DNA from: a virus
Direction: 5' to 3' (one strand)
Virus record (IMG/VR): IMGVR_UViG_3300045988_162375
Span: 746 to 64,745 of that record
Length of the DNA: 64,000 nt
The notes beneath the pieces are model-generated. The model saw nothing but the letters and a program-made list of their open reading frames with translations, was not told where the DNA came from and made no database searches. This document shows, in pieces, positions 25,517-43,259 of the stretch (within the stretch, counting starts at the first letter, position 1; every line of letters begins with the position of its first letter). A program made the position numbers and the translations under genes.

Positions 25517-25607
25517 CTGGGTATGGAGGAGTCAGGTCAACCTCGCTGGTTTTGGGAACCAGAGCAAGCTGTAATGGCGGGCGCAAGTTCGAATCTTGCT
25601 ATCCAGA
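25517..25607 (+). tRNA. tRNA with anticodon TGG (Pro-like, G37) but an unusually long (~20 nt) variable region, 91 nt
   Basis: Acceptor CTGGGTA/TATCCAG, D arm GAGG-AGTCAGGTCAA-CCTC, anticodon arm CTGGT-TTTGGGA-ACCAG, T arm GCAAG-TTCGAAT-CTTGC. Confidence 0.4.
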
Positions 25608-25623
25608 CAATATTTAAAAATAT

Positions 25624-26199
25624 ATGAATAAGATAGATAAATATTTAAGAAGGTTTGCATACAAAATTGAAACCTCTGAGACAAAGGAATCTAGGTATTA
25701 TACTATTGGGGATTTAATCGTTAGAGTATCTAATCATATTGGGAAAAATTCTTCTGGGAATATATCAATAATTATTGACAGAAATAATTATATACTTTAT
25801 GTTCCATCAACTAATAAAGTAAGTCTTATTTCTTATGAGGAGTGTAAAACTTTAATCAGAGGTATTGTATTACATGCTTCTTTATTTTTGGTTGGAGATT
25901 CTACATATCAAAAAAGTCTTGTTAAGGAGAATGAAGAGTTAAAATTTCAGATTAGTAATTTAAAGCAGAAAATAAATATTCAGGAAAGACAATTAATTCC
26001 GAAGAAAAAACCAAATGATACGTCTATCAAAGTAATTCGAGCTATTTTAATAAATTTAGAAAAGTGCAAAAAGAAAAAAATTAAAGTTAAGTATGGCTCT
26101 TGTGAATTTCAAACGTTACCTGACAGTACGATTTATGAAATTTGGAAAGATCCAGAAATTCGAAAATATGTTAAAGAACTTAAAATTAATTTAATATGA
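25624..26199 (+). CDS. hypothetical protein
   Basis: 191-aa ORF. Confidence 0.35.
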   Translation: MNKIDKYLRRFAYKIETSETKESRYYTIGDLIVRVSNHIGKNSSGNISIIIDRNNYILYVPSTNKVSLISYEECKTLIRGIVLHASLFLVGDSTYQKSLVKENEELKFQISNLKQKINIQERQLIPKKKPNDTSIKVIRAILINLEKCKKKKIKVKYGSCEFQTLPDSTIYEIWKDPEIRKYVKELKINLI

Positions 26200-26981
26200 A
26201 ATTAAATGTATTGCTCGCAAAACTGGAGCAGGGTGCTTCCCAGTTTAAAGCTCTCCTTCGAGATTATACAACCTTCTTTAAGAAGGAGTCAGACAACTTT
26301 CGAGGTGTTAAAAATACCTACGAACCTCGTCCTGACACTGTAGATCTTCCCAGTGAACGTAAACTCATTGCGGTTGTAACAACTGTAGATGAGAAATTCG
26401 ACTATTTCACTAATATGGTAAAAAGCTATATCAGTGAGATGTTTAATTGTGAAGCAACTAATGCATCGGGAACTGCTCGTGCAGATCTGGTTGTGGATGG
26501 TAATGTAATTGCTAATCTGAGCAGTCTGGAGCTTCTTAAGCTCAAGTCATTTCTGGAAAATCCTCAGCTTCAGGAGATGTTCCAGAACATTCCCGTTCGT
26601 AAAGATTCTGAGATCTGGGAACCATGTACTGAAGAAATGTATGCAGGTCGAGCAATTATGCAGTCTCCCCTTCTGAAAGGTACTAAAAAGTCTATCACTA
26701 AGACTCAGTACATTTTGGAAGATCCGAATGTTCAGAAGCTCGGCAATGCAACTCACTATCAGCCCCAAATTGCAGTAAAAGATACTGTGATGGAACTTGG
26801 TGATTATACCATGCAGCGTTTCTCTGGTGAGTGGACCCCTCGTCAGCGAGCATTAGCTCTTCAGCGTAGAAGTACTCTTCTGTCAGCAACTATTGCTGCA
26901 CTGAAAGTAGCAAATGAGGTAGAAGCAGTAAAATCCAATCTGGATTCAGAATGGCTGCTGAACTATCTCCAAGGTAGGTAA
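26196..26981 (+). CDS. hypothetical protein
   Basis: 261-aa ORF, moderately higher GC, start overlaps upstream stop. Confidence 0.4.
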   Translation: MKLNVLLAKLEQGASQFKALLRDYTTFFKKESDNFRGVKNTYEPRPDTVDLPSERKLIAVVTTVDEKFDYFTNMVKSYISEMFNCEATNASGTARADLVVDGNVIANLSSLELLKLKSFLENPQLQEMFQNIPVRKDSEIWEPCTEEMYAGRAIMQSPLLKGTKKSITKTQYILEDPNVQKLGNATHYQPQIAVKDTVMELGDYTMQRFSGEWTPRQRALALQRRSTLLSATIAALKVANEVEAVKSNLDSEWLLNYLQGR

Positions 26982-27148
26982 TAAAACAAACAAAATATTT
27001 GACGATAGACTTAGCTTCAGACTTAGACTAAGTAGCAAAGAGCTGTAATATCCTAGATAAATTACAAGGAGCTACATAAGATTTAGTGTCGCGTCAAAAG
27101 CTTTAGTCTCAAAGTTAATAAGGATGTGCTAATTCACTAATAAAAAAA

Positions 27149-27232
27149 TCATAAGACTGGGGGTTCGAGTCCCCCATTCGCCGCTAATTAAATCACTATA
27201 TGGCGAATTGGAGAAATGGTTAACTCGTATGA
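27149..27232 (+). tRNA. Second inverted-order tRNA half pair (3' half 27149-27183, 18-nt spacer, 5' half 27202-27232)
   Basis: 3' half: TCATA-AGACT-GGGGG-TTCGAGT-CCCCC-ATTCGCC-G; 5' half: GGCGAAT-TG-GAG-AAATGGTTAA-CTC-G-TATGA; acceptor and anticodon-stem strands are perfectly complementary. Confidence 0.3.
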
Positions 27233-27342
27233 ATACAATAAGTTAAAGTGAATTAGATGCACATTATCGTACAATATTTAAAAATACTGTAATTCATCAA
27301 TGAAGGAGAAGTAAGCGGGCCATGCTTGCTTCTCCATTTTAT

Positions 27343-27422
27343 GGCCCTGTAAGCAAATTGGTAAAGCTGCTTATATATTCTAGGTTCATAAGTGTGTGGA
27401 GGTTCGAATCCTTCCATGGCCA
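27343..27422 (+). tRNA. tRNA-like gene with a 13-nt anticodon loop (anticodon undetermined)
   Basis: Acceptor GGCCCTG/CATGGCC, U8, D arm AGC-AAATTGGTAA-GCT, stem CTTAT/ATAAG enclosing ATATTCTAGGTTC, T arm GGAGG-TTCGAAT-CCTTC. Confidence 0.3.
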
Positions 27423-27522
27423 CATGGTTTTCGTAATTTGATTTGTTTTAGTGAAAGGTAACTTACAGCAAATTTAAGTATAATTCGTCTGTTAATTATT
27501 CATAGTTACCTAGTTTTAAGGA

Positions 27523-27609
27523 GCGGGTATGGCGCAATTGGTAGCGCAGAGCACTTTTAATGCTAAGGGAGCCGAAAGGCCGTTCAGGGTTCAAGTCCCT
27601 GTGCCCGCA
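27523..27609 (+). tRNA. Type-II-fold tRNA (19-nt variable arm, A73) with anticodon loop CTTTTAA (TTT, Lys-type)
   Basis: Acceptor GCGGGTA/TGCCCGC, D arm GCGC-AATTGGTA-GCGC, anticodon stem GAGCA/TGCTA (one mismatch), variable GGGAGCCGAAAGGCCGTT, T arm CAGGG-TTCAAGT-CCCTG. Confidence 0.45.
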
Positions 27610-27801
27610 CTATTTTTTGGATATATAAAATAAAGTTATTATCTTTGTAACACAAGGTTACTTCAGCAAGCTTCTTCTACTGAATTGTATTTTGTTGAAC
27701 AGCGATCTGGGTTCGAGTCCCAGTTATAGGAAACTTCAGGGCTGAGAAGTACTATAGTCGTCTAATGGTAGGATGTAAATTAGAGTAACCTAGCCCAATA
27801 T

Positions 27802-27885
27802 GTACAGATGGCCGAGTGGTCGATGGCACAAGACTGTTAATCTTGCAGATTTATCTCACCGTAGGTTCGATTCCTGCTCTGTACG
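27802..27885 (+). tRNA. Ser-like type-II tRNA (G73, 15-nt variable arm) with anticodon loop CTGTTAA (GTT, Asn-type; one change from Ser GCT)
   Basis: Acceptor GTACAGA/TCTGTAC, D arm GCC-GAGTGGTCGAT-GGC, anticodon arm CAAGA-CTGTTAA-TCTTG, variable CAGATTTATCTCACC, T arm GTAGG-TTCGATT-CCTGC. Confidence 0.5.
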
Positions 27886-27903
27886 CTTAAACTTTAATGA
27901 AAA

Positions 27904-28362
27904 ATGATAAAGATTTATCTTGCAGGTCCGTTTTTCAATGAAAAAGAACGGCATCTTGTAGAAACTGCAGCACTCATTCTGCGTAATCAAGGATATGAAG
28001 TTATAGTTCCTATGGAACACTTCATTGAAAATGGTGAAAAGTTAACTAATGAAGAGTGGGCACGTAAAGTATTTGAATATGATGTAGAGCAAATCAGAAA
28101 TGCAGATTGTATACTTGCAATTTATCATGGTCATTACTCTGATAGTGGTACTGCATGGGAAATAGGCTTTGCATTTGCACATGATACAACTTGTATTGTT
28201 GCTCATGTTGATCCAAGTATTACAGCAAGTATCATGCCTGTTACTGGATGCTACTACAATATTAAATTCTCAGATATTGGTAAGATAGATCTGAAGAATT
28301 TACTTGATAATGAAAGGCCTTCTTCCAGAGGATTGAATGCTTGGATAGTAGAGCAGAAGTAA
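27904..28362 (+). CDS. nucleoside 2-deoxyribosyltransferase-family protein
   Basis: N-terminal IYLAGPFF motif and GTAWEIGFA region typical of Nuc_deoxyrib_tr/DNPH1-like proteins. Confidence 0.5.
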   Translation: MIKIYLAGPFFNEKERHLVETAALILRNQGYEVIVPMEHFIENGEKLTNEEWARKVFEYDVEQIRNADCILAIYHGHYSDSGTAWEIGFAFAHDTTCIVAHVDPSITASIMPVTGCYYNIKFSDIGKIDLKNLLDNERPSSRGLNAWIVEQK

Positions 28363-28576
28363 CACAACTAGGATTTGTAGTGAAATGTAAAGCCGAGAGT
28401 GCGGTATGGACATTGCAGGCTCTGATATGAAGGCACTCTAATCTATCAGTATTAGTCCAGAGATCAGAAATGATTCAAAGCGAAAATTTCATAGTTGTGT
28501 TTTTACAAGGTCTCTTACAGCAACCTTTATTTAGCAATAGACTTTTAATCTACGGAGCTTTATAGAGACCTTTTAT

Positions 28577-28648
28577 GAGGTATTGGTGTTAGTGATAGCA
28601 TATGTGACTTCCAATCACAAGGGGAGAGTTTGAATCTCTTATACCTCT
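28577..28648 (+). tRNA. tRNA-Gly(TCC)
   Basis: Acceptor GAGGTAT/ATACCTC, anticodon arm TGTGA-CTTCCAA-TCACA, T-loop TTTGAAT. Confidence 0.75.
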
Positions 28649-28683
28649 CAATTGTAACTAATAATTATTAATAAACTAAATTA

Positions 28684-29418
28684 ATGAAACGTTTTAAAGA
28701 ACTTTCAGATGATATAATCAGAACTGTGTGAAATAACAGTAAAAGTTTGTTTGAAATTTGTAAAAAGTTAGAAATTCATGATAATATTTCTAATAGAAAT
28801 AAATTAAAAGAATGGGCAGTTAAAAATAAAGTGGAGATTCCTGTTACTAACATACTTACAAAAGATAGTTATGAAAAGAATCCTAAACTATGTAAACAAT
28901 GCGGAAGTGCAATTTCATGAAGTAAGAGAGCCAATGACTTTTGTTCCCATTCATGCAGTGCTACATATATAAATTTAAAAAGAGGCGCTAAGTCAAGTGG
29001 TAAGTATGTTCGTGGTGCTACTTCTATCTGTGTAAATTGTGGAAATGTAGTACCTGCAAGAAATCAATATTGTAATCACAAATGCCAAGCTGAATATGCC
29101 TACAAGGAATTTATCAAACGCTGAAAAGAAGGTAAAGAATTAGGAATGGCAGGTGAAGATGGATTATCTGCACATATTCGACGATATTTATTAGAGAAGG
29201 CTAATTATACCTGTGAAATTCCAGGATGTGGATGTAATTTCATTAATTCTTATACTAATTTATCCATTCTTCAGGTACATCATATTGATGGAGATGCAAC
29301 TAACAATAAAGAAGAAAATCTCCAGGTTTTGTGTCCAAATCATCATGCAATGACTGAACATTTTGGATCAAGGAATAAAAATAGTACTAGACGATATCGA
29401 TACTCTAAAAATAAATAG
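28684..29418 (+). CDS. HNH endonuclease, free-standing between tRNA genes, ~245 codons with 3 in-frame TGA
   Basis: Frame from MKRFKELSDDIIRTV-W-NNSK... runs through 3 TGA into track ORF 29146-29418 (HHIDGD...NLQVLCPNHH); N-terminus paralogous to the 23138 HNH. Confidence 0.55.
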
Positions 29419-29644
29419 TTTATAGGCTAGCTCAAAGCCTATTCGAACAAACTACCGAAGTACAAGGTAATGAGCACTCCCTAAATGTTAGGGTAAAGTC
29501 GATGCTGATAGACAATAAAGAAACAAGTTAGTTTCATTCAGCAATTTTAGCGGCGTAATAACTCTTAACATATAAATTGATCATTTGTATGGAGTTTCTG
29601 TGGCAATAAAAAATCAGACGTGCAAACTACGATAGTGTTTATAA

Positions 29645-29726
29645 GCCTCCTTGGCACAGCGGCGACTGCAACGGTTTTGTAATCCGTCTTCATTTGAACG
29701 CGTCGGTTCGAGTCCGACAGGAGGCT
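29645..29726 (+). tRNA. tRNA with 14-nt variable arm and anticodon region TTTTGTAAT (TGT by canonical numbering, ambiguous)
   Basis: Perfect acceptor GCCTCCT/AGGAGGC, T arm GTCGG-TTCGAGT-CCGAC, variable CTTCATTTGAACGC, anticodon stem ACGG(T)/(T)CCGT with a 31-39 mismatch. Confidence 0.4.
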
Positions 29727-29742
29727 CTAAAATACTATAATT

Positions 29743-30309: not shown

Positions 30310-30321
30310 ATTTTATAGATG

Positions 30322-30394
30322 GGGGAGCATGTACCAAGGCTGGCGATAGACACTTGCAATGTCTGTGTGGTGAGTTCGATTCTCATCTTCTCCA
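30322..30394 (+). tRNA. tRNA-Ala(TGC)
   Basis: G3-U70 pair in acceptor GGGGAGC/CTTCTCC, anticodon arm AGACA-CTTGCAA-TGTCT, T-loop TTCGATT; D arm irregular. Confidence 0.6.
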
Positions 30395-30513
30395 CAATCT
30401 TCTATAAACTAGAGTTCTATATAGAAAGAGTACTGTAATCTGTTAAGGGCTTATAAATCAGACGTTAAAGAAAAAAGTCTTCGGGGCTGAAGAGCCCTGC
30501 TATGAACTTAATT

Positions 30514-30540
30514 CCAGTAGAAATACTGGAATTTTTTATT
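30514..30540 (+). terminator. Rho-independent terminator-like hairpin
   Basis: CCAGTA-GAAA-TACTGG followed by AATTTTTTATT. Confidence 0.45.
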
Positions 30541-32854: not shown

Positions 32855-32940
32855 CCCGACGCGGCTACGATGGTGGAGTGGCGCAGCACTGTAAATGCTG
32901 TACATCAGAAACTCATGAGGTTCGAATCCTCACGGCGGGA
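32855..32940 (+). tRNA. tRNA-Tyr(GTA), type II
   Basis: Anticodon arm CAGCA-CTGTAAA-TGCTG, 15-nt variable arm, T arm TGAGG-TTCGAAT-CCTCA, A73. Confidence 0.65.
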
Positions 32941-32956
32941 CTAATTTATATTGACA

Positions 32957-35645: not shown

Positions 35646-36227
35646 ATGCGATTACTTGTAGTAGTTGATATGCAAGAAGACTTCATCAGAGGTGCATTAA
35701 CGGTTCCTGGTGCTGAAGAAATAATTTCTCCTATAGAGAAATTAGTTAAAGAGTATATAACAGCAGATGATGCTGTCCTTTTTACTCGGGATACTCATTA
35801 TGAGCATAGTGATACTAGGGGATTCAGCTATGCTATGACTCGTGAAGGTAGAAATCTTCCAATTCTTCATTGCGTTTGTGGAACTGAAGGTCATAAGCTT
35901 ATTAAGGAATTTAAGCCTTATCTTCGTTCCTGCTATGTAATGGATAAACTAAATAGGTTTGGATTTATCCAGGATGAGTTTAATGATGCCAAGATAGATG
36001 ATGGAGAATATTTATTCGACATCGCTGATTGCATTACAGAAATTACTTTGGTTGGTGTAGTAACTAATCTTTGTGTTATTTCATGTGCTGTAAGTTTTCA
36101 GCAAATATTCCCTGATGCAGATATCATCATAGATGCTTCCTGCTGTCGTTCCAATAACAATGAACTTCATAACAAAGCTTTAGATGTTATGGAGGGTTTA
36201 CAAATGACTATAATTAATCGTTATTAA
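35646..36227 (+). CDS. pncA: nicotinamidase / isochorismatase-family cysteine hydrolase (PncA-like)
   Basis: N-terminal LLVVVDMQEDF (catalytic Asp), TNLCVISC (catalytic Cys), 193 aa. Confidence 0.55.
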   Translation: MRLLVVVDMQEDFIRGALTVPGAEEIISPIEKLVKEYITADDAVLFTRDTHYEHSDTRGFSYAMTREGRNLPILHCVCGTEGHKLIKEFKPYLRSCYVMDKLNRFGFIQDEFNDAKIDDGEYLFDIADCITEITLVGVVTNLCVISCAVSFQQIFPDADIIIDASCCRSNNNELHNKALDVMEGLQMTIINRY

Positions 36228-36228
36228 T

Positions 36229-37713
36229 ATGTTTAAACCTTGTGGAGCTCTACTGACTGATTTTTATAAGCAGGATCACCAGCGTCAATATGACCCTAGC
36301 ATCACTAAGGTAGTTTCTTACTATGTACCTCGTAAAACTAGGATTCCTGAATTTGATAAGGTAGTAGTTTTTGGTATTCAAGCATTTATTGAGGAGTATC
36401 TGATTGAGTACATGAATGAAACTTTCTTTAACCGTCCCTTAGAAGAAGTTATTGCAGAATATGAATTTGTGATTTCTTCTACTATGGGAGCAGACCGTGT
36501 TAACTCGGATAAAATTAAAAACCTTCATGAATTAGGATATCTTCCTATCGAAATTTGGGCACTTCCTGAGGGATATAAAGTAGGAATGAATATCCCCTGT
36601 ATCGAGATTTCTAATACTAATCCAGAATTTGCATGGTGTACTAATTTCATTGAAACCTTGATGCTCTCTGAGCTTTGGTATCCAATGTGTGTTGCAACTG
36701 CTGTAACTAAATATCGTAGTATCGTAAATGATTTTTATTCTAAAACTTCTGATATTTCTGGTCGTTCTGCTATTTCTGAGTTCGGATTTAGAAGTTTAGT
36801 TGGACTTCATGGTGCTATTAAAGCTTCGTGTGGATTTTTGCTCTCTTTTAATAAGACTGCGACTATTCCTGGCATTATGTATGCTTCAAAGTATTATCAT
36901 ACCCCAATGTCTGTAGTAGGTGGAGGTATGGCTTCTACTGAGCACTCCGTAATGTGTAGTTCTGCTGCCATTGATGGGGATGAAAAAGTTATGATTCGAC
37001 GCCTCCTTACTGAGGTCTATCCTAATGGATCATTCTCTATGGTAAGTGATTCCTATGATTACTGGAATGTTGTCGATGAGATTCTCCCATCTCTTAAGGA
37101 AGAAATTCTCAGTAGAAATGGTACTTTGTATGTTCGTGGTGACTCTGGAGATCCTGTAGAAATTGTAACTGAGACGGTTTTTTCTCTTTGGGAGACTTTT
37201 GGAGGCACTGTCAACTCTAAGGGATATAAAGTCTTAGACCCTCATGTTCGAGCTTTATATGGTGATGGCATCACTCAGTTACGTGCAAAACAGATTTATC
37301 AGATTTTGTATGATAAAGGATTCTCTGCAGAGAATGTTGCACTTGGTGCAGGAGGATTTTCCATGCTTTCTTACATGGATGAGTTTGGGAATGTAGATAT
37401 GTTCTCTCGCGATACATTTAATGTAGCAATTAAATGCAGCTATGTAGAACAAACCATTGATGGAAAAACTAAATCTATCATGGTCTACAAAGATCCTAAA
37501 ACGGATTCAGGAATGAAGAAATCCCACAAAGGATGTTGTGCTGTTTTCTACAACCATGTAACTGGTGAGTTTGATTGTGATGAAGGTATGACACTGAAAG
37601 AAGCTCATAATGAGCCTTTCAATTTACTTCGTCCTATCTTTTCAGATGGAAAAATGAGAGAGCAAACTACTCTCACAGAAATTCGTAGAACTCTTTGGAA
37701 CGGGAAATTCTAA
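36229..37713 (+). CDS. NAMPT/NAPRT-family phosphoribosyltransferase (NadV or PncB, or Namat-like)
   Basis: 494 aa; N-terminal LLTDFYKQDHQRQYDP characteristic of the nicotinamide/nicotinate PRTase family. Confidence 0.55.
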   Translation: MFKPCGALLTDFYKQDHQRQYDPSITKVVSYYVPRKTRIPEFDKVVVFGIQAFIEEYLIEYMNETFFNRPLEEVIAEYEFVISSTMGADRVNSDKIKNLHELGYLPIEIWALPEGYKVGMNIPCIEISNTNPEFAWCTNFIETLMLSELWYPMCVATAVTKYRSIVNDFYSKTSDISGRSAISEFGFRSLVGLHGAIKASCGFLLSFNKTATIPGIMYASKYYHTPMSVVGGGMASTEHSVMCSSAAIDGDEKVMIRRLLTEVYPNGSFSMVSDSYDYWNVVDEILPSLKEEILSRNGTLYVRGDSGDPVEIVTETVFSLWETFGGTVNSKGYKVLDPHVRALYGDGITQLRAKQIYQILYDKGFSAENVALGAGGFSMLSYMDEFGNVDMFSRDTFNVAIKCSYVEQTIDGKTKSIMVYKDPKTDSGMKKSHKGCCAVFYNHVTGEFDCDEGMTLKEAHNEPFNLLRPIFSDGKMREQTTLTEIRRTLWNGKF

Positions 37714-38483
37714 TGAAAGAAGTATATGAAGGAATAGTTTCCTTTCTTAAGAATTATCAAGAACGTACCCATGTGAAAGGGTATGTTCTTGGTATTTCTG
37801 GAGGAAAGGATTCTACTGTAGTGGCCAAATTATTGGTAGATTCTATAGGTAAGGAAAATGTATTAGGTGTGCTAATGCCTAATGGTAAGCAAGCTGATAT
37901 TGAGGATAGTTATACAGTATGTGACTTTCTTGATATTAACTATACTGTTGTTAATATAGAAAATGCGTTTGATGAACTTATTCATCAAATTGATGTTTCG
38001 AAAATAACTACAGTGGAAGGGAATGAAGAAAACATTCCAGTAACGGAAAAGGCTCTTACTAATGTTCCTCCTCGTATTCGTATGACTATTCTATATACTA
38101 TAGCTCAGTCTGTAGGATATCGAGTAGCGGGGACTAGTAATGCTTCAGAATTATTTATTGGTTGGGGAACTAAATGGGGAGATTTGGCATCTGATATTAA
38201 TCCTATTTCTCAATTAACATGTTCTGAAGTTATTTCTTTAGGAGACTATATGGGACTCCCATATGATCTTATACATAAGACTCCTGCAGATGGATTAACA
38301 GGAAAGTCTGATGAAGAAAATTTTGGTTTTACATATAAAGAACTTGACACTCTTATTGTAAAGCAGCGAAATCTTACTTGCACAGGTAGAATACAATGTG
38401 CTTTTACTGAACAAGAATTAAAAATCTTAAAATTACATGAAGCTGCGTATCACAAAGATCATGTAATTAAAATACATTATTAA
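37695..38483 (+). CDS. nadE: NH3-dependent NAD+ synthetase (NadE-like PP-loop ATP pyrophosphatase)
   Basis: PP-loop YVLGISGGKDSTVVAKLL; 262 aa. Confidence 0.6.
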   Translation: MEREILMKEVYEGIVSFLKNYQERTHVKGYVLGISGGKDSTVVAKLLVDSIGKENVLGVLMPNGKQADIEDSYTVCDFLDINYTVVNIENAFDELIHQIDVSKITTVEGNEENIPVTEKALTNVPPRIRMTILYTIAQSVGYRVAGTSNASELFIGWGTKWGDLASDINPISQLTCSEVISLGDYMGLPYDLIHKTPADGLTGKSDEENFGFTYKELDTLIVKQRNLTCTGRIQCAFTEQELKILKLHEAAYHKDHVIKIHY

Positions 38484-38484
38484 T

Positions 38485-39375
38485 ATGGGAAGCGGATCAT
38501 GGAGTTCTAACACATATAAAGCTTTTGCTGATAGCTATACTAAAAAATCCAGAGAAGAAATCTTTCATCAAAGATCTCTACACGAAGAAATGGATCTTAC
38601 AAAAAGTAAGACGCATATTCGAGAATCTAGAGATTCTGAGGAACACCCAGAATCTCTTCCAGTTTTCATTGCATTAGATGAAACTGGTTCAATGGGCTCA
38701 ATTCCTGATAAGATGATCAGGGATTATCTTCCGAAGTTAATGGATTCTATTATTGATTCTATTGGAGTTAAACACCCTCAAATTCTTTTTATGGGAGTAG
38801 GAGATCATGAATGTGATTACTGCCCGTGTCAGGTAGGTCAATTCGAATCTTCAACTGTTGCAATTAATCAATGTCTCTCTAAAATCTATTTGGAGGGTCG
38901 TGGTGGAGGTAATAGTGGAGAATCCTACTTACTTCCTTGGATTATTGCAGGAAATCACACGTCAATTGATAGCTGGGAAAAGCGAAAGCAAAAAGGATTC
39001 CTTTTTACAGTTGGTGATGAACCTACTTTGACAAGAATAAGTAGGGGAACTTTGGCATCCCTCACTGGAATGGAGTATGAGCGTGATTATACCTGGCAGG
39101 AGGCTTATGAACTTGCCTGTGAGAAATATCATGTGTTTCATATCCATGTTCGACATGGAAGTGAACATTATGATGAGGTAGTAGCTAAACAAATGAAAGA
39201 AATTCTTAGAGAAAACTTTATTGTGTGTAAACCTGATGAAGTTGTAGAAGCCATTTGTGAAGCTATGGGTAAAACTCTAAAAGGTAGCTCTTCAGTAATT
39301 GAAGAGGTTTCTGCAGAAAAAACTGTAGAAAATACAGAATCAAAACCTAATATATTTGACATACATCGACGATAA
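38485..39375 (+). CDS. hypothetical protein, possible vWA-like fold
   Basis: 296 aa; motif VFIALDETGSMGS resembles a MIDAS variant. Confidence 0.3.
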   Translation: MGSGSWSSNTYKAFADSYTKKSREEIFHQRSLHEEMDLTKSKTHIRESRDSEEHPESLPVFIALDETGSMGSIPDKMIRDYLPKLMDSIIDSIGVKHPQILFMGVGDHECDYCPCQVGQFESSTVAINQCLSKIYLEGRGGGNSGESYLLPWIIAGNHTSIDSWEKRKQKGFLFTVGDEPTLTRISRGTLASLTGMEYERDYTWQEAYELACEKYHVFHIHVRHGSEHYDEVVAKQMKEILRENFIVCKPDEVVEAICEAMGKTLKGSSSVIEEVSAEKTVENTESKPNIFDIHRR

Positions 39376-40469
39376 TGTATAATATTGTAGTGGGTTGTAC
39401 GTTTGGCGACGAGGGTAAGGGTCAAGTGACTCATGCCCTTTGTTGCGACGCTAAAAGAAAGCGTTTAAAACCTCTGGTTGTTAGATTTTCTGGAGGGCAT
39501 CAAGCAGGGCACACAGTAACTACTTCATCTGGAACAATGCATATATTTTCTTGCTTTGGATCTGGAACATTTGCTGAAGCACCTACCTATTGGATGAAGC
39601 AATGTGTTATGGATCCACTACAATGGATGCGGGAACGAGAGGAGTTGGATTTCTTAGGATGTAATATCCCTATCCAATATTTTGATCCATATGTACAAGT
39701 AACAACTCCTTTTGACGTAATGCTGAATTCTGAAAGGAGTAAAGGTTTTACAGTAGGAAAAGGGATATGGGAGACTGTTCAGAGACAAAGAGAAGGACTA
39801 GCTTTATATGTAAAAGATTTAGCTTTTCCTCAAGTTGTAAAAATGAAGCTCCGATTAATTAGAGAATGGGCGGAAGATAGACTCCAGTTTAAGGAAACTT
39901 ATTCAAGATTTGCTCATGTTTTCGATAACTTAGATTCTTTAGTACATACTTATTGTAAGATTTTTTATCCCAATATAGTATTGGAGGATACGTTATCTAA
40001 ATTAGCATGGAAAGAAAAGACTTCTGTGATATTTGAGGGTTCTCAAGGAGTACTTTTGGACCCTAATATTGGATTTTCACATGAATATACTACCCCACTT
40101 CCATGTTGTCCATCGTGGGACAATCTCCCATTCTTTTTAAGTGATGATCAACTAATATTTAATTTTGTATATAGATCTTATTTAACAAGACATGGTAAAG
40201 GGCCTGTTGGAGGTTCTATATTCAAGGAGATTAATAATCCTTATGAAACAAATTTAAATAATCCTTTTCAAGGGGAATTTCAAACTTATGAATTCAATAA
40301 GGAATTAGTCTTGTATGGAATTGATCATGTTAAATCACACTTTAATCCTGAATATAAGGTAAGGTTGATTGAAACATGTTGTGACATATGTGCAGGACAT
40401 GACTTAGGAATCCCTTATAATTACTCTATCAAAACCTGCAAAAAGAATTTTGACTCTGTATGCAAATAA
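39375..40469 (+). CDS. Adenylosuccinate synthetase homolog, short form (PurA-like, or possibly PurZ-like)
   Basis: N-terminal VGCTFGDEGKGQV and VVRFSGGHQAGHTV match the PurA P-loop/GDP-binding signatures; 364 aa, shorter than bacterial PurA (~430 aa). Confidence 0.55.
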   Translation: MYNIVVGCTFGDEGKGQVTHALCCDAKRKRLKPLVVRFSGGHQAGHTVTTSSGTMHIFSCFGSGTFAEAPTYWMKQCVMDPLQWMREREELDFLGCNIPIQYFDPYVQVTTPFDVMLNSERSKGFTVGKGIWETVQRQREGLALYVKDLAFPQVVKMKLRLIREWAEDRLQFKETYSRFAHVFDNLDSLVHTYCKIFYPNIVLEDTLSKLAWKEKTSVIFEGSQGVLLDPNIGFSHEYTTPLPCCPSWDNLPFFLSDDQLIFNFVYRSYLTRHGKGPVGGSIFKEINNPYETNLNNPFQGEFQTYEFNKELVLYGIDHVKSHFNPEYKVRLIETCCDICAGHDLGIPYNYSIKTCKKNFDSVCK

Positions 40470-41281
40470 TTAACTTTTTATACCCAGAAAAGTCAGAAAT
40501 AAAGTATCGAATTGATACTTATCCTGATTCTCAATCTCATCTTGTACTTGAGTCTGAAATGGATAGACGAAAGTCTTTGTCGATATATACTAGACTGTCC
40601 AATTTGAATGATATTTGGATCCTAATGCAATTAGCTGATATTTGTCATCGTCAAGGTATCCAGATTTCCTTTTTACGAATAGCTTATTTATTTGCAGCAC
40701 GAACTGATAGATTATTTTCTTTTAACGAAGCATTAGATTTGGAGCTTGTTAAAAAATGTCTTATCTTTGTACAAGCAGATCAAATTCTAATATTAGATCT
40801 TCATTCTAATCGTTTAATTGTAGAAGGAATAGGTGATAATGATTGGCCTACATTTTTTACCTTAAACCCAGGTTTTAATATTCCAGAGAGTATTTTATTC
40901 CCTGATGAAGGCGCTTATCATCGTTACAGTGAGCTTTTAGACTTTAATATAAAATATCGTACTACAACGTATGTTGCTACAAAGCATAGGATCTCAAGGG
41001 ATAAGTTAGAGGTAAAATTACCTTCTGAAATAAAGCCAAATACTTCTATTCTAGTTTTTGATGATTTATGTGATGGTGGGGGAACTTTCTTTGCAATTCA
41101 TAAAGCATTACAAGATATGGGAGTAACTGATGTGCATTTACGTGTTACGCATGCTATCCAAAAAGAACCTTTAGTAAAGTTATCAAAACTTTACAAAACA
41201 ATAACAATTACCAATTCTTATAAGGATTGGGATAAAGAAGAACTTCCAAACAATATAAAAGTAATAAGAGTTTATGAATAA
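40460..41281 (+). CDS. Ribose-phosphate pyrophosphokinase (Prs) family protein; possibly an ADPR-PP synthetase-like enzyme
   Basis: Prs motifs LRIAYLFAARTDR (cf. PYFGYARQDR), DLHS, LFPDEGA, ILVFDDLCDGGGT (PRPP-binding loop). Confidence 0.55.
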   Translation: MQIINFLYPEKSEIKYRIDTYPDSQSHLVLESEMDRRKSLSIYTRLSNLNDIWILMQLADICHRQGIQISFLRIAYLFAARTDRLFSFNEALDLELVKKCLIFVQADQILILDLHSNRLIVEGIGDNDWPTFFTLNPGFNIPESILFPDEGAYHRYSELLDFNIKYRTTTYVATKHRISRDKLEVKLPSEIKPNTSILVFDDLCDGGGTFFAIHKALQDMGVTDVHLRVTHAIQKEPLVKLSKLYKTITITNSYKDWDKEELPNNIKVIRVYE

Positions 41282-41624
41282 ATTTAATGAAATTCTGAGT
41301 GCTACTGGAACTGCGGTACTCAAGAAACGTGCTGAAATCATCAATGCTGATGCCCGCGAAGCAGCTAAGGATCAGGTTAATCTCATTGAGAAAGAGATTC
41401 GTCAGATTAAGTCCAAGATTATGAATCTGGAGGATCTGTCGATTAAATCGACCGAATCACTGGTTGTAGGTACGGATTTTAAGGCAGATGAGTGGGTAAC
41501 TCAGATGTTCAAGCTTCGTGATGACTTGCGCAACGCTGAAATCTGTCTGGAAATTGCTCAGAATATTTATAATGAGTATTTCACGGAACTTCCTGAAGTA
41601 GACTGTGATAAGAAAGCAGAATAG
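41274..41624 (+). CDS. hypothetical coiled-coil protein
   Basis: 116 aa. Confidence 0.3.
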   Translation: MNKFNEILSATGTAVLKKRAEIINADAREAAKDQVNLIEKEIRQIKSKIMNLEDLSIKSTESLVVGTDFKADEWVTQMFKLRDDLRNAEICLEIAQNIYNEYFTELPEVDCDKKAE

Positions 41625-41631
41625 CTTCATA

Positions 41632-41652
41632 GGCGGATTTACTCCGCCTTTT
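41632..41652 (+). terminator. Rho-independent terminator-like hairpin
   Basis: GGCGGA-TTTAC-TCCGCC followed by TTTTAA. Confidence 0.45.
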
Positions 41653-41654
41653 AA

Positions 41655-41728
41655 GGGCCCTTAGCTCAATTGAATAGAGCATCTGACTACGAATTAGAAG
41701 GTTACAGGTTTGAGTCCTGTAGGGCCCA
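41655..41728 (+). tRNA. tRNA-Arg(ACG)
   Basis: Acceptor GGGCCCT/AGGGCCC, D arm TAGCTCAATTGAATAGAGC, anticodon loop CTACGAA, T arm ACAGG-TTTGAGT-CCTGT. Confidence 0.75.
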
Positions 41729-41924
41729 CATATGAAAACTGTTTTATATAGAATACAATCAATTGAAGCCCCAGAAAATGAAGGGTTTCGGTATGGCTCA
41801 TTAAGAACACTATCTAAGACAAAGGTAGATGAAGAAATGTGCTTAAGGAATGAGTTTGGAAGTCATTATCTAATTAATGTTCCAGATTATTGAATTTGTG
41901 AGATTTTAAAAGAAATAGAAGAAG

Positions 41925-42986
41925 ATGATGTATAGTTTAGATGAAATAGGTATTTTACCTAGTTCAAAAGCCACGGATATTACAAGTCGTAGTGAGTGTA
42001 GTCCTTTAGGAGACTTAGGAACATATCCTATTTTTGTTTCTCCTATGACATCCGTTATTGATGAATCAAATTATCAACTTTTTACAAAGGCTGATGTGCT
42101 TCCAATTATTCCAAGACGTGTAGATAATTTACAGTTTAGACTTAATGCATGTAACCATGTTTGGTGTGCATTTAGTTTAAAGGAATTTGAAACATTCTTT
42201 TGTGAAGGAGAACCTTCTGATGAGTGTCCTCTGGTACTTATTGATATGGCTAATGGCCACATGAAGAAAATTTATGACCTGGTTAAGAAGGCTAAGGAAA
42301 AGTGGAGCACGATTATTATCATGGTAGGTAATATAGCTCATCCAGATCTTTATTGGGAATGCTATGATGCAGGGGTGGACTATGTTCGTGTAGGTATTGG
42401 AACTGGCAGTGTATGTACTACAGGAGTAAAAACTGGAGTACATGCTTCTATGGAATGGCTATTGCAACAATTAGTTAAGCGTCGATCCATGATTAAAGAG
42501 TCTCCTAAACCTAAAAAGGCTCCAAAGATTATCGCAGATGGAGGAATTTCTACAATAGATCGAGCTATAAAGTGTTTAGCTTTGGGCGCCGATTATGTAA
42601 TGATGGGTAAAATGTTTGCTCAATGTAACGAAGCTTGTGGGTATGTTAGAACAAAGTGGCCAGATGATAATGATACTATACTTAAATATTTTGCATCTTT
42701 AACTAAAGCAGAAAGTGATCGAATCATTGAAGTGTATCCTAAAGAGCGATTATACTACGGAATGGCAAGTGAACGTGGTCAAAAGGATATTTCAAACACT
42801 AAAAAGGCCGAAGAAGGAATTGAAATTTGGGTTCCTGTTGAATATACTCTTGAATCTTTACTTTCTCAATTTGATTCTGCATTAAGGTCTGCTATGTCTT
42901 ATACAGGATGTAGGACTCTTGAAGAATTCAAAAATGTAAAATGGGAGTATATGTCTCCCTCTGAAAGAAATGCTTATTACAAATAA
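41925..42986 (+). CDS. GMP reductase / IMP dehydrogenase-family enzyme (GuaC-like)
   Basis: 353 aa TIM-barrel; catalytic-Cys loop VGIGTGSVCTTGVKTG and C-terminal KIIADGGISTIDRAIKCLALGADYVMMGKMFA match the IMPDH/GMPR family. Confidence 0.55.
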   Translation: MMYSLDEIGILPSSKATDITSRSECSPLGDLGTYPIFVSPMTSVIDESNYQLFTKADVLPIIPRRVDNLQFRLNACNHVWCAFSLKEFETFFCEGEPSDECPLVLIDMANGHMKKIYDLVKKAKEKWSTIIIMVGNIAHPDLYWECYDAGVDYVRVGIGTGSVCTTGVKTGVHASMEWLLQQLVKRRSMIKESPKPKKAPKIIADGGISTIDRAIKCLALGADYVMMGKMFAQCNEACGYVRTKWPDDNDTILKYFASLTKAESDRIIEVYPKERLYYGMASERGQKDISNTKKAEEGIEIWVPVEYTLESLLSQFDSALRSAMSYTGCRTLEEFKNVKWEYMSPSERNAYYK

Positions 42987-43174
42987 AATGAATAATCTTG
43001 ATTTATACACAGTAATAGTTTTTGGAATCTTTGTTTTATGTTTATTATTAGGACTTGGATTTGCATTAACTATGTGGTCTGCTCCTTGGGGAATATTCTA
43101 CTTCGGAGGAATGATCGTGCTTACTATTTATTATCTTAATATATTAAAAGATAGGATAGAGTAATTAAAGGTTT

Positions 43175-43259
43175 GCGGAGGTGACCAGAATGGATAATGG
43201 ACCAGTCTTCTAAACTGGCGGCTGAATAGCCATTGTGGGTTCGAGTCCCACCCTCCGTA
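43175..43259 (+). tRNA. Type-II-fold tRNA (3-bp D stem, 16-nt variable hairpin, A73) with anticodon loop CTTCTAA (TCT, Arg-type)
   Basis: Acceptor GCGGAGG/CCTCCGT (G1-U72), D arm CCA-GAATGGATAA-TGG, anticodon arm CCAGT-CTTCTAA-ACTGG, variable CGGCTGAATAGCCATT, T arm GTGGG-TTCGAGT-CCCAC. Confidence 0.5.

Follow-up and report, generated by a model that had tools for sequence, protein, structure and literature searches.

The window, by which we mean the whole 64-kb stretch of viral DNA analyzed here, codes for five tRNAs that combine a long variable arm with the anticodons of proline, lysine, asparagine, threonine and arginine. These five belong to a large and widespread phage-associated class of tRNAs with a class I isotype and a long arm, and we found no earlier description of this phage class in the literature. 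They are very probably charged with their cognate amino acids, and the reading that we tentatively prefer is that they decode their own codons from within a type II architecture, in which the arm would act as a steric disguise against tRNA-targeting nucleases.

A long extra arm is a textbook property of Leu, Ser and Tyr tRNAs, and the ordinary type II set listed in a preliminary description of this DNA (Leu-TAA, Leu-TAG, Ser-TGA, Ser-GCT, Tyr-GTA) is also found in the window; its tRNA-Ser(GCU) looks 8/4 in the acceptor/T stack. The same description had claimed long arms on the following five tRNAs, and both ARAGORN and the Rfam tRNA covariance model agree.

25517-25608, plus strand: tRNA-Pro(UGG), 92 nt, called by ARAGORN; Rfam tRNA model, 50.5 bits, 17-nt insertion in the variable region
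25563-25582, plus strand: variable region of tRNA-Pro(UGG), 20 nt
27523-27610, plus strand: tRNA-Lys(UUU), 88 nt, called by ARAGORN; Rfam, 60.3 bits, 15-nt insertion
27566-27584, plus strand: variable region of tRNA-Lys(UUU), 19 nt, hairpin GCC-GAAA-GGC
27802-27886, plus strand: tRNA-Asn(GUU), 85 nt, called by ARAGORN; Rfam, 57.8 bits, 11-nt insertion
27846-27860, plus strand: variable region of tRNA-Asn(GUU), 15 nt
29645-29727, plus strand: tRNA-Thr(UGU), 83 nt, called by ARAGORN; Rfam, 48.8 bits, 11-nt insertion
29688-29701, plus strand: variable region of tRNA-Thr(UGU), 14 nt
43175-43260, plus strand: tRNA-Arg(UCU), 86 nt, called by ARAGORN; Rfam, 52.0 bits, 12-nt insertion
43219-43234, plus strand: variable region of tRNA-Arg(UCU), 16 nt, hairpin GGCT-GAAT-AGCC

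All five match the Rfam model end to end, with 48.8 to 60.3 bits against a gathering score of 29. The inserted bases (11 to 17) are confined to the variable region, the anticodon arm lies where hand folding had placed it, and the measured variable regions agree with the 14 to 20 nt claimed. The anticodon of the tRNA at 29645, earlier given as TGT or ambiguous, is UGU, with no ambiguity. In tRNA-Pro(UGG), the D arm combines a 4-bp stem with an 11-nt loop, and the acceptor end shows C1-G72 and A73. The D arm of tRNA-Lys(UUU) is class I-like (4 bp, 8-nt loop). tRNA-Asn(GUU) shows G1-C72, U2-A71, A3-U70, C11-G24 and a Ser-like D arm, tRNA-Thr(UGU) shows G1-C72, C2-G71 and U73, and tRNA-Arg(UCU) has A20 and G1.U72. 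The discriminators of Lys (A73), Asn (G73) and Arg (A73) are as described earlier, as is the 3-bp D stem of Arg, which consists of three Watson-Crick pairs. In Thr and Arg the D stem is 3 bp long and the D loop is enlarged; Pro has the enlarged loop on a 4-bp stem. The arms of the long alleles are of a Tyr-like type, with a stem of 3 to 4 bp and 3 to 4 unpaired nucleotides on the 3' side, compared with 4 to 7 bp and one unpaired nucleotide in Ser arms. The Arg arm of the window is clearly stable (1 of 200 shuffles) and those of Pro and Lys moderately so; the A/U-rich Asn and Thr arms, folded alone, have an MFE of 0 and no predicted stability.

About 30 related gut-phage contigs of ~175 kb share these long alleles. 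Each of the five slots is occupied, at a syntenic position, by the long-arm allele or by an unrelated short allele with the identical anticodon. The long allele is present in 17 contigs and the short one in 9 at both the Pro and Thr slots, in 20 and 3 at the Lys slot, in 6 and 18 at the Asn slot (one contig has both) and in 7 and 11 at the Arg slot. The slots assort largely independently, each genome has one allele per anticodon, with a single exception, and these five are the only class I anticodons ever long in this phage group. They read about 23% of the codons of the window. The arm stems covary in Arg (GGCT/AGCC, GGCT/AGTC and GAGC/GCTC, with full compensation in relative L020) and in Asn (AGAT/ATCT, AGGG/TCCT and AGGG/CCCT, in relatives L003, L010 and L033). 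As the same long alleles recur in some 30 relatives and their stems covary, the long arms are more than chance.

The preliminary description had preferred mischarging by SerRS or LeuRS through the long arm, and here our results depart from it. The isotype-specific marks of the long alleles are the same as in the short alleles that they replace, and G2-C71, present in every Ser tRNA of this phage group and in 106 of 110 surveyed phage Ser tRNAs, is absent from all five. To judge from these sequences, mistranslation by the five tRNAs is unlikely, as cognate identity marks are kept and none of the five joins G2-C71 to a long arm stem, the signature of Ser. A body classifier, which calls the isotype with the anticodon masked and was also run with D-arm features removed, assigns the Pro tRNA of the window to Pro (0.98 to 1.0) and the Thr tRNA to Thr (0.84 to 0.98). 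It is ambiguous among Leu, Gly and Lys for Lys (Leu, 0.17 to 0.61), ambiguous for Asn (Ser, 0.14 to 0.47, or 0.14 to 0.75 over the Asn-long variants) and Leu-like for Arg (0.54 to 0.88), so that some dual charging of these three is possible. The Ser call on the long Asn is weak, since the classifier gives it to the group's short Asn alleles as well. The window's Arg has A20, as do 81% of long-arm Arg tRNAs, compared with 7% of Leu tRNAs. With D-arm features removed, the cognate call is reached as often for long-arm tRNAs (64.9%) as for short ones (67.4% in cross-validation), and Ser, Leu or Tyr is called no more often among 328 long-arm tRNAs (7.3%) than among short ones (5.9%).

Mistranslation could in principle be deliberate or tolerated, with SerRS, LeuRS or TyrRS charging some of these tRNAs via their type II shape and Asn replaced by Ser, and Lys or Arg by Leu. 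Neither LeuRS nor SerRS reads the anticodon, and G73, G1-C72, A3-U70, C11-G24 and the Ser-like D arm of the long Asn, like the Ser and Leu calls just given, speak for such charging. We nevertheless regard it as very unlikely: the cognate marks on Pro and Thr are unmistakable, the short arms with their unpaired 3' nucleotides are unlike those of Ser, and the long allele is usually the only one that the phage has for these codons, about 23% of those in its genes. Two points count against our preferred reading. The bodies of the window's Lys, Asn and Arg are not called cognate with confidence, and four of the five cognate synthetases belong to class II and come to the tRNA from its variable-loop side, so the extra arm could hinder them.

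Several known systems share part of this architecture. Canonical bacterial type II tRNAs (Leu, Ser, Tyr, Sec) likewise carry a hairpin arm, placed between positions 45 and 46-48, tend to a D stem of 3 bp with a 10- to 11-nt D loop, and have a 7/5 acceptor/T stack, and tRNA-Tyr is the closest in arm geometry (3- to 4-bp stem, 4- to 5-nt loop, 3 to 4 unpaired 3' nucleotides). The phage five differ from them in anticodons and marks, which are those of Pro, Lys, Asn, Thr and Arg, and from Ser in the lack of its signature with a single unpaired 3' nucleotide. Allo-tRNAs, found by metagenome mining and in some cases in phages, also join a long arm to many non-Ser, non-Leu anticodons, but they have an 8/4 or 9/3 stack, a Sec-like D arm and Ser identity, and are suppressors or inactive (Mukai et al. 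2017, PMC5389517), whereas the phage five have a 7/5 stack and cognate marks. The nematode nev-tRNAs, which have a class II shape with Gly or Ile anticodons, raise the same question of charging by an "arm" synthetase versus decoding by the anticodon, and their leucylation in vitro is an argument for mistranslation (Hamashima et al. 2012, PMC3333845). They are, however, eukaryotic and Leu-derived, whereas most phage long-arm tRNAs have cognate-type bodies, with a Leu-like score only in the window's Arg and partly in its Lys. That isotype need not dictate arm length in nature, and that a single synthetase can accept both architectures, is known from the type I (short-arm) tRNA-Leu of Streptomyces (PMC6614811); unlike our case, that one involves arm loss, a cellular genome and one isotype.

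Pattern scans seeded by anticodon over IMG/VR loci and cellular genomes brought together hundreds of different long-arm class I tRNAs (Lys, Asn, Thr and others) from unrelated phages. Of the IMG/VR loci seeded with Lys, 64 of 119 held a confirmed long-arm tRNA of that anticodon, as did 92 of 116 for Asn, 28 of 115 for Thr and 19 of 119 for Arg. The carriers are diverse (T5-like, T4-like, Caulobacter and Rhodobacter phages, huge phages), and a single family of long-arm tRNA-Asn is found in about 490 records of cultured enterobacterial phages, among them EPS7 and the BASEL phages Bas27 and Bas30. In cellular genomes only 14 of 120 matches were real long-arm cases, four of them archaeal intron-type insertions and the other ten in loci where 8 kb hold 2 to 31 tRNAs (at least 7 in nine of the ten); cellular long-arm class I tRNAs are thus rare and mostly lie in phage-like tRNA arrays. 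Marks at the acceptor end are recurrent in the surveyed tRNAs: G73 (80/84) and U1-A72 (56/84, versus 0/110 in Ser tRNAs) in long-arm Asn, G1-C72 and C2-G71 in 27 of 28 Thr, U73 in Cys (7/8) and Gly (4/4), and G73 in Trp (6/6). Compared with shuffled sequences, their arms show a higher stability (mean z, -2.2).

The arm could also be a neutral, tolerated architecture with no function of its own, which we consider rather unlikely. The variable region is one of the few places where a tRNA bears a hairpin insertion, and fast-evolving, cassette-shuffled tRNA genes, perhaps aided by HNH endonucleases, would spread such lineages by recombination. HNH endonuclease ORFs do lie among the tRNAs, as in T5-type tRNA regions; alleles at one slot are unrelated in sequence and so arose by whole-gene replacement rather than insertion; almost every isotype is long-armed somewhere; short-arm tRNA-Leu was also seen in our phage survey, so arm length is loose both ways; and the stem covariation may only reflect keeping an insertion compact. 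This view sits poorly with the strong isotype bias, in which Lys and Asn dominate and no neighbor of long-arm Lys is long-armed among Ala (0/23), His (0/24) or Arg (0/48), and with the restriction to exactly five anticodons in the window's group. Among near-identical genomes, each of the five slots retains both alleles, changes in the D arm accompany the extra arm, and cellular tRNAs, which could bear the same insertion, rarely do.

A further alternative is that the arm tags the tRNA for a phage factor (a synthetase, a modification or repair enzyme, Ro/Y-RNA, a CCA-adding enzyme) or spares it from a phage nuclease that destroys host tRNAs, in either case creating an orthogonal pool. In its favor, the window codes for a Ro60/TROVE-like protein, a cREC domain linked to RNA repair and a YrlA-like RNA that immediately precedes the long-arm tRNA-Pro, and a nucleotidyltransferase, a peptidyl-tRNA hydrolase and a ribonuclease are encoded in the tRNA regions of other long-arm phages. 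Engineered expansion of the variable loop makes tRNA-Pyl orthogonal to one PylRS class by steric exclusion. We still find such a handle improbable, given that no synthetase or tRNA nuclease was recognized within the 64-kb window, no shared partner gene was identified among the very different carriers, and long and short alleles are interchangeable in otherwise near-identical genomes.

Our preferred reading, that of cognate decoders disguised by their arm, agrees with the one alternative of the preliminary description that we favor, replacements resistant to anticodon nucleases, although for the anti-nuclease role itself our confidence is limited. AriB in Escherichia coli targets Lys-UUU, Thr-UGU and Asn-GUU, cutting at 40/41 and also contacting the D loop, and T5 variants of these tRNAs rescue infection (PMC12409363, PMC11464382); Pro-UGG is a minor target. 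The overlap with our five tRNAs is post hoc, Arg-UCU is not an AriB target, and this PARIS specificity comes from one E. coli system, which may not be that of this phage's host. A link to defense is also seen in the surroundings of the tRNA region, where genes of counter-defense and RNA repair are found: NAD salvage, a Ro-like protein with a Y-RNA-like element, a cREC domain and HNH endonucleases. T5 tRNA-Tyr escapes Retron-Eco7 via its variable loop (PMC11555353), and anticodon-loop variants of mycobacteriophages are a further example of escape from tRNA immunity (PMC10264068). As here, known escape alleles differ between members of a phage group and lie in tRNA regions that also have homing endonucleases, but they are point substitutions near the cleavage site, whereas a whole extra helix would provide the putative resistance in our case. 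The canonical U36-C40 motif UAAUC is kept in 65% of long-arm Lys versus 30% of short phage Lys (P = 1e-5), with no such contrast in the broad survey for Asn (40% versus 40%) and no significant one for Thr, and the comparison is confounded by host taxonomy. Within the window's group, UAAUC is present in all scorable long Asn alleles (4 of 5 distinct sequences) versus 0 of 8 short ones, and in every long Thr allele.

The same motif would suit decoys or sponges that soak up or inhibit immune nucleases and deliver no amino acids, and the authors of the AriB study suggest that overexpressed viral tRNAs may inhibit AriB. Decoys, the other alternative of the preliminary description, seem to us highly improbable because aminoacylation identity marks at the acceptor end and D loop, which a decoy would not need, are retained, and the long allele replaces the short one instead of accompanying it. 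Long variable arms are themselves targets of Septu, Retron-Eco7 PtuAB, VapC52 and human SLFN11, so the arm could create a new vulnerability, which counts against a protective role.

On our preferred reading, the five genes would encode working elongator tRNAs for their own anticodons, with a short Tyr-type extra arm; in this ~175-kb human-gut phage they are the long alleles of slots that ordinary short tRNAs can also occupy. Their anticodons and acceptor or D-loop determinants would still be recognized by the cognate synthetases, and EF-Tu and the ribosome would tolerate the arm, as they do in Leu, Ser and Tyr tRNAs. The arm would reshape the molecule where the anticodon stem meets the D and variable regions, and docking or cutting by host tRNA-targeting immune nucleases (e.g., PARIS AriB-like) may then fail; the phage would so retain a usable supply of its most exposed tRNAs.

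ARAGORN identified 24 tRNA genes in the window, every one of them on the plus strand. The textbook long-arm isotypes are Leu, Ser, Tyr, and Sec, and an ordinary long-arm set (Leu-TAA, Leu-TAG, Ser-TGA, Ser-GCT, and Tyr-GTA) is present; five further genes combine a long variable arm with the anticodon of a normally short-arm (class I) isotype.

Long-arm tRNA genes with class I anticodons in the window (ARAGORN)
25517-25608 (+): tRNA-Pro(TGG), 92 nt, variable region 25563-25582 (20 nt)
27523-27610 (+): tRNA-Lys(TTT), 88 nt, variable region 27566-27584 (19 nt)
27802-27886 (+): tRNA-Asn(GTT), 85 nt, variable region 27846-27860 (15 nt)
29645-29727 (+): tRNA-Thr(TGT), 83 nt, variable region 29688-29701 (14 nt)
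43175-43260 (+): tRNA-Arg(TCT), 86 nt, variable region 43219-43234 (16 nt)

The Rfam tRNA covariance model matches each of the five over its full length, with 48.8 to 60.3 bits (gathering score, 29) and posterior probabilities near 1, and places 11 to 17 inserted bases solely between the anticodon stem and the T stem. ARAGORN and the Rfam model thus agree that the long arms, which the preliminary description had drawn from folds made by hand, are real; the alignments set the anticodon loops where those folds had them and gave none of the five a normal variable loop. A hand-fold artifact is ruled out, as two independent tools concur, and so is an intron, since the insertion lies in the variable region and not at 37/38. 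A shared mobile hairpin is likewise ruled out by the unrelated arm sequences of the five. All five form a complete 7/5 cloverleaf in both ARAGORN and the covariance model alignments and possess the conserved core (U8, A14, G18G19, T loop TTCRANT, and R15-Y48, the 15-48 pairs read from the sequence being G-C, A-U, G-C, G-C, and A-U). Their variable regions of 14 to 20 nt, above the 10-nt class II mark, form stem-loops of 3 to 4 bp with 3 to 4 unpaired 3' nucleotides, the stems of Asn and Thr being weak when taken alone. The D arm has 3 bp and a 10-nt loop in two of the five (Thr and Arg) and 4 bp in the others, with loops of 11 nt (Pro), 8 nt (Lys), and 9 nt (Asn).

The window has a G+C content of 35% and encodes NAMPT, a nicotinamidase, an NAD synthase, a PurZ-like adenylosuccinate synthetase, an IMPDH-like protein, a Ro60/TROVE-like protein, and HNH endonucleases, besides many ORFs of unknown function. 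No close relative was found among 50,697 deposited phage genomes (INPHARED), in which the best NAMPT match has 50.6% amino acid identity. Identical or near-identical proteins are found on IMG/VR contigs and on 170- to 176-kb human gut metagenome contigs, Hadza and Chinese cohorts included, so, judging by its proteins, the window is part of a common, uncultured gut phage of about 175 kb. We surveyed the alleles of this phage group by running ARAGORN on about 50 loci from about 30 contigs. At each of the five slots, the gene is either a long-arm allele or a short tRNA (72 to 77 nt) with the same anticodon and an unrelated sequence.

Alleles at the five slots in the phage group (counts over contigs)
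Lys: long 20, short 3
Pro: long 17, short 9
Thr: long 17, short 9
Arg: long 7, short 11
Asn: long 6, short 18

Allele states assort largely independently, the window being long at all five slots, and Arg-long was seen only together with Thr-long (5/5 contigs). Genomes have one allele per anticodon, with the sole exception of one contig (L033) that has both Asn forms, and the remaining class I anticodons of the group are never longer than 78 nt. The tRNA, sometimes with its neighborhood, is replaced between conserved flanks. HNH endonuclease ORFs lie among the tRNA genes (23138-23755 and 29146-29418, plus strand, in the window; loci L041 to L050 in relatives), their presence differing between relatives, and may drive the exchange of cassettes at these slots; SegB is the driver of such exchange in the tRNA regions of T4 and T6. 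No tRNAs were found near the divergent relatives of the Ro gene (L035 to L040). The arm could also be a neutral, tolerated architecture that has spread through cassette exchange, a reading that we rather doubt.

The arm stems keep their pairing among relatives, both in Arg (GGCT/AGCC, GGCT/AGTC, and GAGC/GCTC) and in Asn (AGAT/ATCT, AGGG/TCCT, and AGGG/CCCT), and Arg covaries at the acceptor, anticodon, and T stems as well; this covariation was read off the sequences, the MAFFT alignments of the arm regions not being structure-aware. By this evidence, the long alleles are maintained genes and not decaying copies. One decaying copy was seen, a long Asn gene with a D-loop deletion (12195-12271 of the related contig L006). 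The closest non-self relatives of the long Pro, Asn, and Thr alleles are short alleles of their own isotype, which leaves a recent origin from a Ser, Leu, or Tyr gene by an anticodon point mutation unsupported for these three; Arg may have arisen in this way.

The main reading of the preliminary description was that SerRS or LeuRS would charge the five through their long arms and so mistranslate the corresponding codons. The identity marks are common to the long and short alleles of one anticodon and recur in the long-arm tRNAs of unrelated phages. As a proxy for the isotype-model check proposed with that reading, we built a classifier from 1,951 phage tRNAs after masking their anticodons and cutting out their variable regions; in cross-validation, its accuracy was 78.5%.

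Identity marks, E. coli identity sets, and classifier calls for the five genes of the window
Pro: C1-G72, A73; E. coli set G72/A73/G35/G36; called Pro (0.98-1.0)
Thr: G1-C72, C2-G71, U73; E. coli set G1-C72/C2-G71/G35/U36; called Thr (0.84-0.98)
Arg: G1.U72, C2-G71, A73, A20; E. coli set A20/C35; called Leu (0.54-0.88)
Asn: G73; E. coli set G34/U35/U36/G73; ambiguous, Ser (0.14-0.47), Cys, Asn (0.15-0.23)
Lys: A73; E. coli set U35/A73; ambiguous, Leu (0.17-0.61), Gly, Lys (0.11-0.23)

By E. coli rules, which may not be those of the host, the five carry the cognate identity sets for ProRS, ThrRS, ArgRS, AsnRS, and LysRS, from which we infer that they are charged by their cognate enzymes. Every Ser tRNA of the phage group has G1-C72 and G2-C71, and all with one exception have G73; G2-C71 occurs in none of the five long-arm genes and G73 solely in Asn, so none has the full tRNA-Ser set of G73, G2-C71, and a long arm stem followed by one unpaired 3' nucleotide. 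For Pro and Thr, whose cognate marks speak against mischarging, mistranslation seems excluded as far as a sequence can exclude it. The Leu call for Arg, the Leu component for Lys, and the Ser component for Asn speak in its favor. However, the Arg gene is classed as Leu and yet has A20, which is found in 86% of the short and 81% of the long phage Arg tRNAs and in 7% of the Leu tRNAs, and mistranslation is unlikely for Arg on account of this base. The Ser component for Asn is weak, as two short Asn alleles of the phage group are likewise classified as Ser, and the long Pro, Thr, and Asn alleles are not Leu-like. The five anticodons would read about 23% of the codons in the 54 ORFs of the window, which would make general mischarging costly. 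The mischarging proposal thus appears to be mostly wrong, with the bodies of Lys and Asn remaining ambiguous, and taken as a whole we regard it as very improbable.

The picture is similar in the broader phage set. Of 328 long-arm class I tRNAs, 62% were classified in agreement with their anticodon and 12.8% as Ser, Leu, or Tyr. When the D-arm features were omitted, because they are tied to the architecture, cognate calls reached 64.9% for the long-arm tRNAs compared to a cross-validated 67.4% for short ones, and Ser, Leu, or Tyr calls were no more frequent (7.3% versus 5.9%). Long-arm Asn tRNAs have G73 in 80/84, U1-A72 in 56/84 (short Asn, 44/67; Ser, 0/110), and G2-C71 in 31/84 versus 106/110 for Ser. 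Long-arm Thr tRNAs have G1-C72 and C2-G71 in 27/28 and U73 in 24/28, and the discriminator is U73 in 7/8 Cys and 4/4 Gly, G73 in 6/6 Trp, and A73 in 64/79 Lys. The extra arm is short, with a 3- to 4-bp stem, a loop of 4 to 5 nt, and mostly 3 to 4 unpaired 3' nucleotides, a geometry similar to that of tRNA-Tyr and different from that of tRNA-Ser, whose arms have 4 to 7 bp and one unpaired nucleotide. It is more stable than its own shuffles (mean z, -2.2; n = 118). The D arm moves toward the type II form along with the extra arm: among 282 long-arm class I tRNAs, 51% have a 3-bp D stem, versus 25%, and the median D loop is 10 nt, versus 8 nt. Counted in this way, the arm, the D arm, and the identity marks indicate that the phage long-arm class I tRNAs are a coherent structural class, with type II architecture and class I identities.

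Their distribution was examined with a pattern composed of the anticodon loop, a gap of 22 to 30 nt, and the T loop, whose matches are either long-arm tRNAs or chance hits; 115 to 120 loci per scan were checked with ARAGORN.

Long-arm tRNAs confirmed among the matches listed in each scan
Lys-UUU, IMG/VR: 64 of 119
Asn-GUU, IMG/VR: 92 of 116, at least 89 distinct sequences
Thr-UGU, IMG/VR: 28 of 115, with a weaker pattern
Arg-UCU, IMG/VR: 19 of 119
Lys-UUU, 185,579 species genomes: 14 of 120

Lys and Asn are the commonest long-arm isotypes in phages among the matches listed. The Lys-UUU genes of IMG/VR comprise at least 66 distinct sequences in at least 50 clusters at 75% identity, many on contigs of 200 to 600 kb. 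Four of the 14 confirmed among the matches listed from the species genomes are archaeal, with an insertion of the 37/38 type directly after the anticodon loop and an appearance unlike that of the five. The other 10 lie in loci with 2 to 31 tRNAs per 8 kb (nine with at least 7) that look like phage tRNA arrays in MAG contigs. Four Terracidiphilus/Terriglobia MAG contigs (L181, L243, L284, and L289) have near-identical long-arm tRNA-Lys(UUU) genes among 7 to 31 tRNA genes per 8 kb, and these acidobacterial arrays are either phage contigs binned with their host or cellular tRNA arrays. Neighboring genes in the phage loci are also long armed for Cys, Trp, Gly, Met, Pro, Val, Gln, Phe, Glu, Ile, His, Asp, and Lys-CUU; next to long-arm Lys, Cys (8/18), Trp (6/24), and Asn (6/32) have the largest share of long genes, and Ala, His, and Arg have none. 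Short-arm tRNA-Leu genes also occur in phages, at least 19 distinct ones in a first survey, like the 77-nt tRNA-Leu(UAA) of Bas27 (4948-5024 of the fetched locus L643), so arm length is uncoupled from isotype in both directions.

Cultured phages carry such genes too, labeled plainly as tRNA-Lys or tRNA-Asn in deposited genomes. Caulobacter phages CcrBL9 and CcrSC have an 87-nt tRNA-Lys, Rhodobacter phage RcXuper has two of 88 nt, and Ruegeria phages DSS3P8 and V10 also have a long-arm tRNA-Lys. A single 83-nt tRNA-Asn family (arm GTC-GAAA-GAC plus AAC) accounts for 494 records, mostly T5-like phages (Epseptimavirus and Tequintavirus) that infect Salmonella and E. coli, among them EPS7 and the BASEL phages Bas27 and Bas30, and extends to ~170-kb phages of Klebsiella, Enterobacter, Serratia, and Erwinia. 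The Asn gene of T5 is short, so the long/short dimorphism recurs in the T5-like group. Bas34 has a degenerate copy of the long-arm Asn gene (312-394 of L644; Escherichia phage SelmaRatti, MZ501103, 72598-72680), in which the 3' acceptor strand is unpaired; ARAGORN makes no call, and the record annotates a 77-nt tRNA-Asn there. The tRNA-Asn of Bas34 itself was insufficient against PARIS (PMC12409363), which the broken gene may explain; because of the broken acceptor stem, this published result has no bearing on a role of the arm against nucleases, and we discarded it as a test.

Concerning what the arm may do, the window encodes isoacceptors of tRNAs that an immune nuclease is known to cleave (Lys-UUU, Thr-UGU, and Asn-GUU), and Arg tRNAs are targets of colicin D. 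AriB, the tRNA-cutting nuclease of the PARIS defense of E. coli, cuts these three between positions 40 and 41, with the D loop as a further recognition element (PMC12409363, PMC11464382), with Pro-UGG as a probable minor target (PMC12409363), and escape of T5 from PARIS needs its own Lys, Thr, and Asn variants (PMC11464382, PMC12409363). The trio is contained within the five, an overlap noticed post hoc. Known escape variants are mutations of the anticodon stem-loop (PMC10264068), and the tRNA-Tyr of T5 evades Retron-Eco7 via its variable loop (PMC11555353). The canonical U36-C40 sequence of the anticodon arm, UAAUC, is kept in the scorable long Asn alleles of the window's group (4/5 distinct sequences scored) and in all its long Thr alleles, and is found in 0/8 short Asn and 2/5 short Thr alleles. 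In the broad set, it is present in 65% of long-arm and 30% of short Lys tRNAs (p = 1e-5), Lys alone being significant, with no significant contrast for Asn or Thr. This pattern fits two alternative escape routes. The tRNA region, moreover, sits amid counterdefense and RNA-repair genes.

Because of the AriB targets, the escape of T5, the retention of UAAUC, and the neighboring counterdefense genes, we favor a steric disguise against tRNA-targeting defenses as the role of the arm. The arm would alter the shape and leave synthetase identity intact, blocking the docking of host tRNA-cleaving immune nucleases (PARIS AriB-, PrrC-, or colicin-like), and an arms race, in which hosts also have nucleases that target the arm, would preserve the long/short polymorphism. 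Two points tell against such a disguise: class II enzymes, to which four of the five cognate synthetases belong, face the variable side, and several defenses cut long variable arms. That arm addition is a general counterdefense device of phages, through blocked docking, or else the mark of a private phage tRNA pool, we put at somewhat under an even chance. It is unlikely that the arm is a handle for a phage factor or protects from a phage-made nuclease directed at host tRNAs. The preliminary description had offered decoys or replacements resistant to anticodon nucleases as its alternative: the former we consider extremely improbable, the latter plausible.

Compared to known classes, the five share the long variable stem-loop of canonical class II tRNAs (Leu, Ser, Tyr, and Sec) and differ from them in anticodons (TGG, TTT, GTT, TGT, and TCT) and identity marks. 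Allo-tRNAs, with Ser identity and an 8/4 or 9/3 stack (PMC5389517), differ from the five, which are 7/5, and so do nev-tRNAs, which are leucylated eukaryotic tRNAs with Leu bodies (PMC3333845). Functionally closest are the phage tRNA variants that escape immune nucleases, to which the five, as candidates, would add a structural change of a new kind. No description of long-arm tRNAs of class I isotypes in phages was found in the literature searched in full text, a partial coverage that makes an earlier mention possible. The class is widespread in phages and seems to have gone unremarked.

Several other RNA elements and genes of the window deserve a record of their own.

Other elements of the window
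4980-5030 (+): twister-P1-like match, 47.1 bits, below the gathering score of 67.2
8220-8290 (+): pistol ribozyme, 73 bits (gathering score, 34.5)
9236-9309 (+): Glu-like tRNA, CTC, 46.4 bits, from the Rfam model alone and not ARAGORN
11572-11645 (+): tRNA-like gene with a 6-nt anticodon loop (ARAGORN "ga")
25405-25515 (+): permuted tRNA-like element (T arm, closed acceptor stem, D arm) directly upstream of the long-arm tRNA-Pro
27343-27422 (+): conserved 80- to 81-nt tRNA-like gene with a CTA (amber-reading) anticodon
28577-28648 (+): tRNA-Gly(TCC), 49.7 bits, from the Rfam model alone and not ARAGORN
32855-32941 (+): tRNA-Tyr(GUA) with C1-G72, an A5.G68 mismatch, and a poorly paired 14-nt variable region
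33484-35175 (+): Ro60/TROVE-like protein (DUF2828 and DUF7788, phrog_850)
35646-42986 (+): metabolic block with nicotinamidase, NAMPT, NAD synthase, PRTase-like protein, PurZ-like adenylosuccinate synthetase (phrog_1211), and IMPDH/GMP-reductase-like protein
44505-44936 (+): gene for a small cREC_REC ("cyclic-phosphate processing receiver") protein (domain E = 2e-21); the long-arm tRNA-Arg lies 1.2 kb upstream
45669-45754 (+): tRNA-Ser(GCU) with an 8-bp acceptor stem and a 4-bp T stem (ARAGORN)

Altogether, the window has at least 27 tRNA or tRNA-like genes. The permuted element, which shows compensated variation in relatives, matches the whole Rfam YrlA (Y RNA-like) model with 31.8 bits, below the gathering score of 69 (E = 0.0055 in the window and 1.4e-5 in 161 nt), and together with the Ro60/TROVE-like protein suggests a phage Ro/Y-RNA module. 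The tRNA-Tyr just upstream of the Ro-like gene is conserved in relatives; its C1-G72 is a first pair of the archaeal/eukaryal type. The CTA gene (Rfam, 44.2 bits) folds with either a 13-nt anticodon "loop" or an interrupted anticodon stem of 8 bp and occurs in L002, L003, and L005 to L009 among other related contigs, ARAGORN calling it "Pyl" in relatives. Recoding of TAG as the context of the odd tRNAs was dropped, since no long ORF with an internal in-frame TAG was found in the window, where 5/54 ORFs end in TAG. The relatives' counterparts of the gene at 11572-11645 have 8-nt anticodon loops (gtgt, gcgt; 14819-14891 of L002 and 14579-14651 of L003), and all of these genes may be frameshift-prone or nondecoding tRNAs. 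The metabolic block, supplemented in relatives by a NADAR-domain gene, points to NAD+ reconstitution (a known theme of counterdefense) and possibly to a modified purine pathway, and the cREC_REC family is associated with RNA-repair systems. The tRNA-Ser(GCU) is missed by the Rfam tRNA model at its gathering score, scores 41.9 bits with the tRNA-Sec model, and fits the 8/4 tRNA-Ser reported for phages (Mukai et al., PMC5389517).

Phages thus place a long arm on Pro, Lys, Asn, Thr, and Arg tRNAs here and on almost every isotype elsewhere, with cognate marks kept. This may be a new and simple route by which they escape tRNA-targeting defenses, and it may help to explain why the alleles of phage tRNA genes are so puzzlingly diverse. 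A tRNA of this kind, the 83-nt tRNA-Asn, is present in the cultured E. coli K-12 phages Bas27, Bas30, and EPS7, for which PARIS and other defenses are available in the laboratory, so the proposal can be tested directly. Such tRNAs are natural scaffolds for tRNA engineering (orthogonal or tagged tRNAs), and for annotation they are a warning that "isotype mismatch" flags on such genes are no signal of a pseudogene. If our reading is true, many synthetases, class II enzymes facing the variable side among them, would tolerate an extra helix, and the rule that only Leu, Ser, and Tyr tRNAs are class II in bacteria would hold for cells, not for their viruses.
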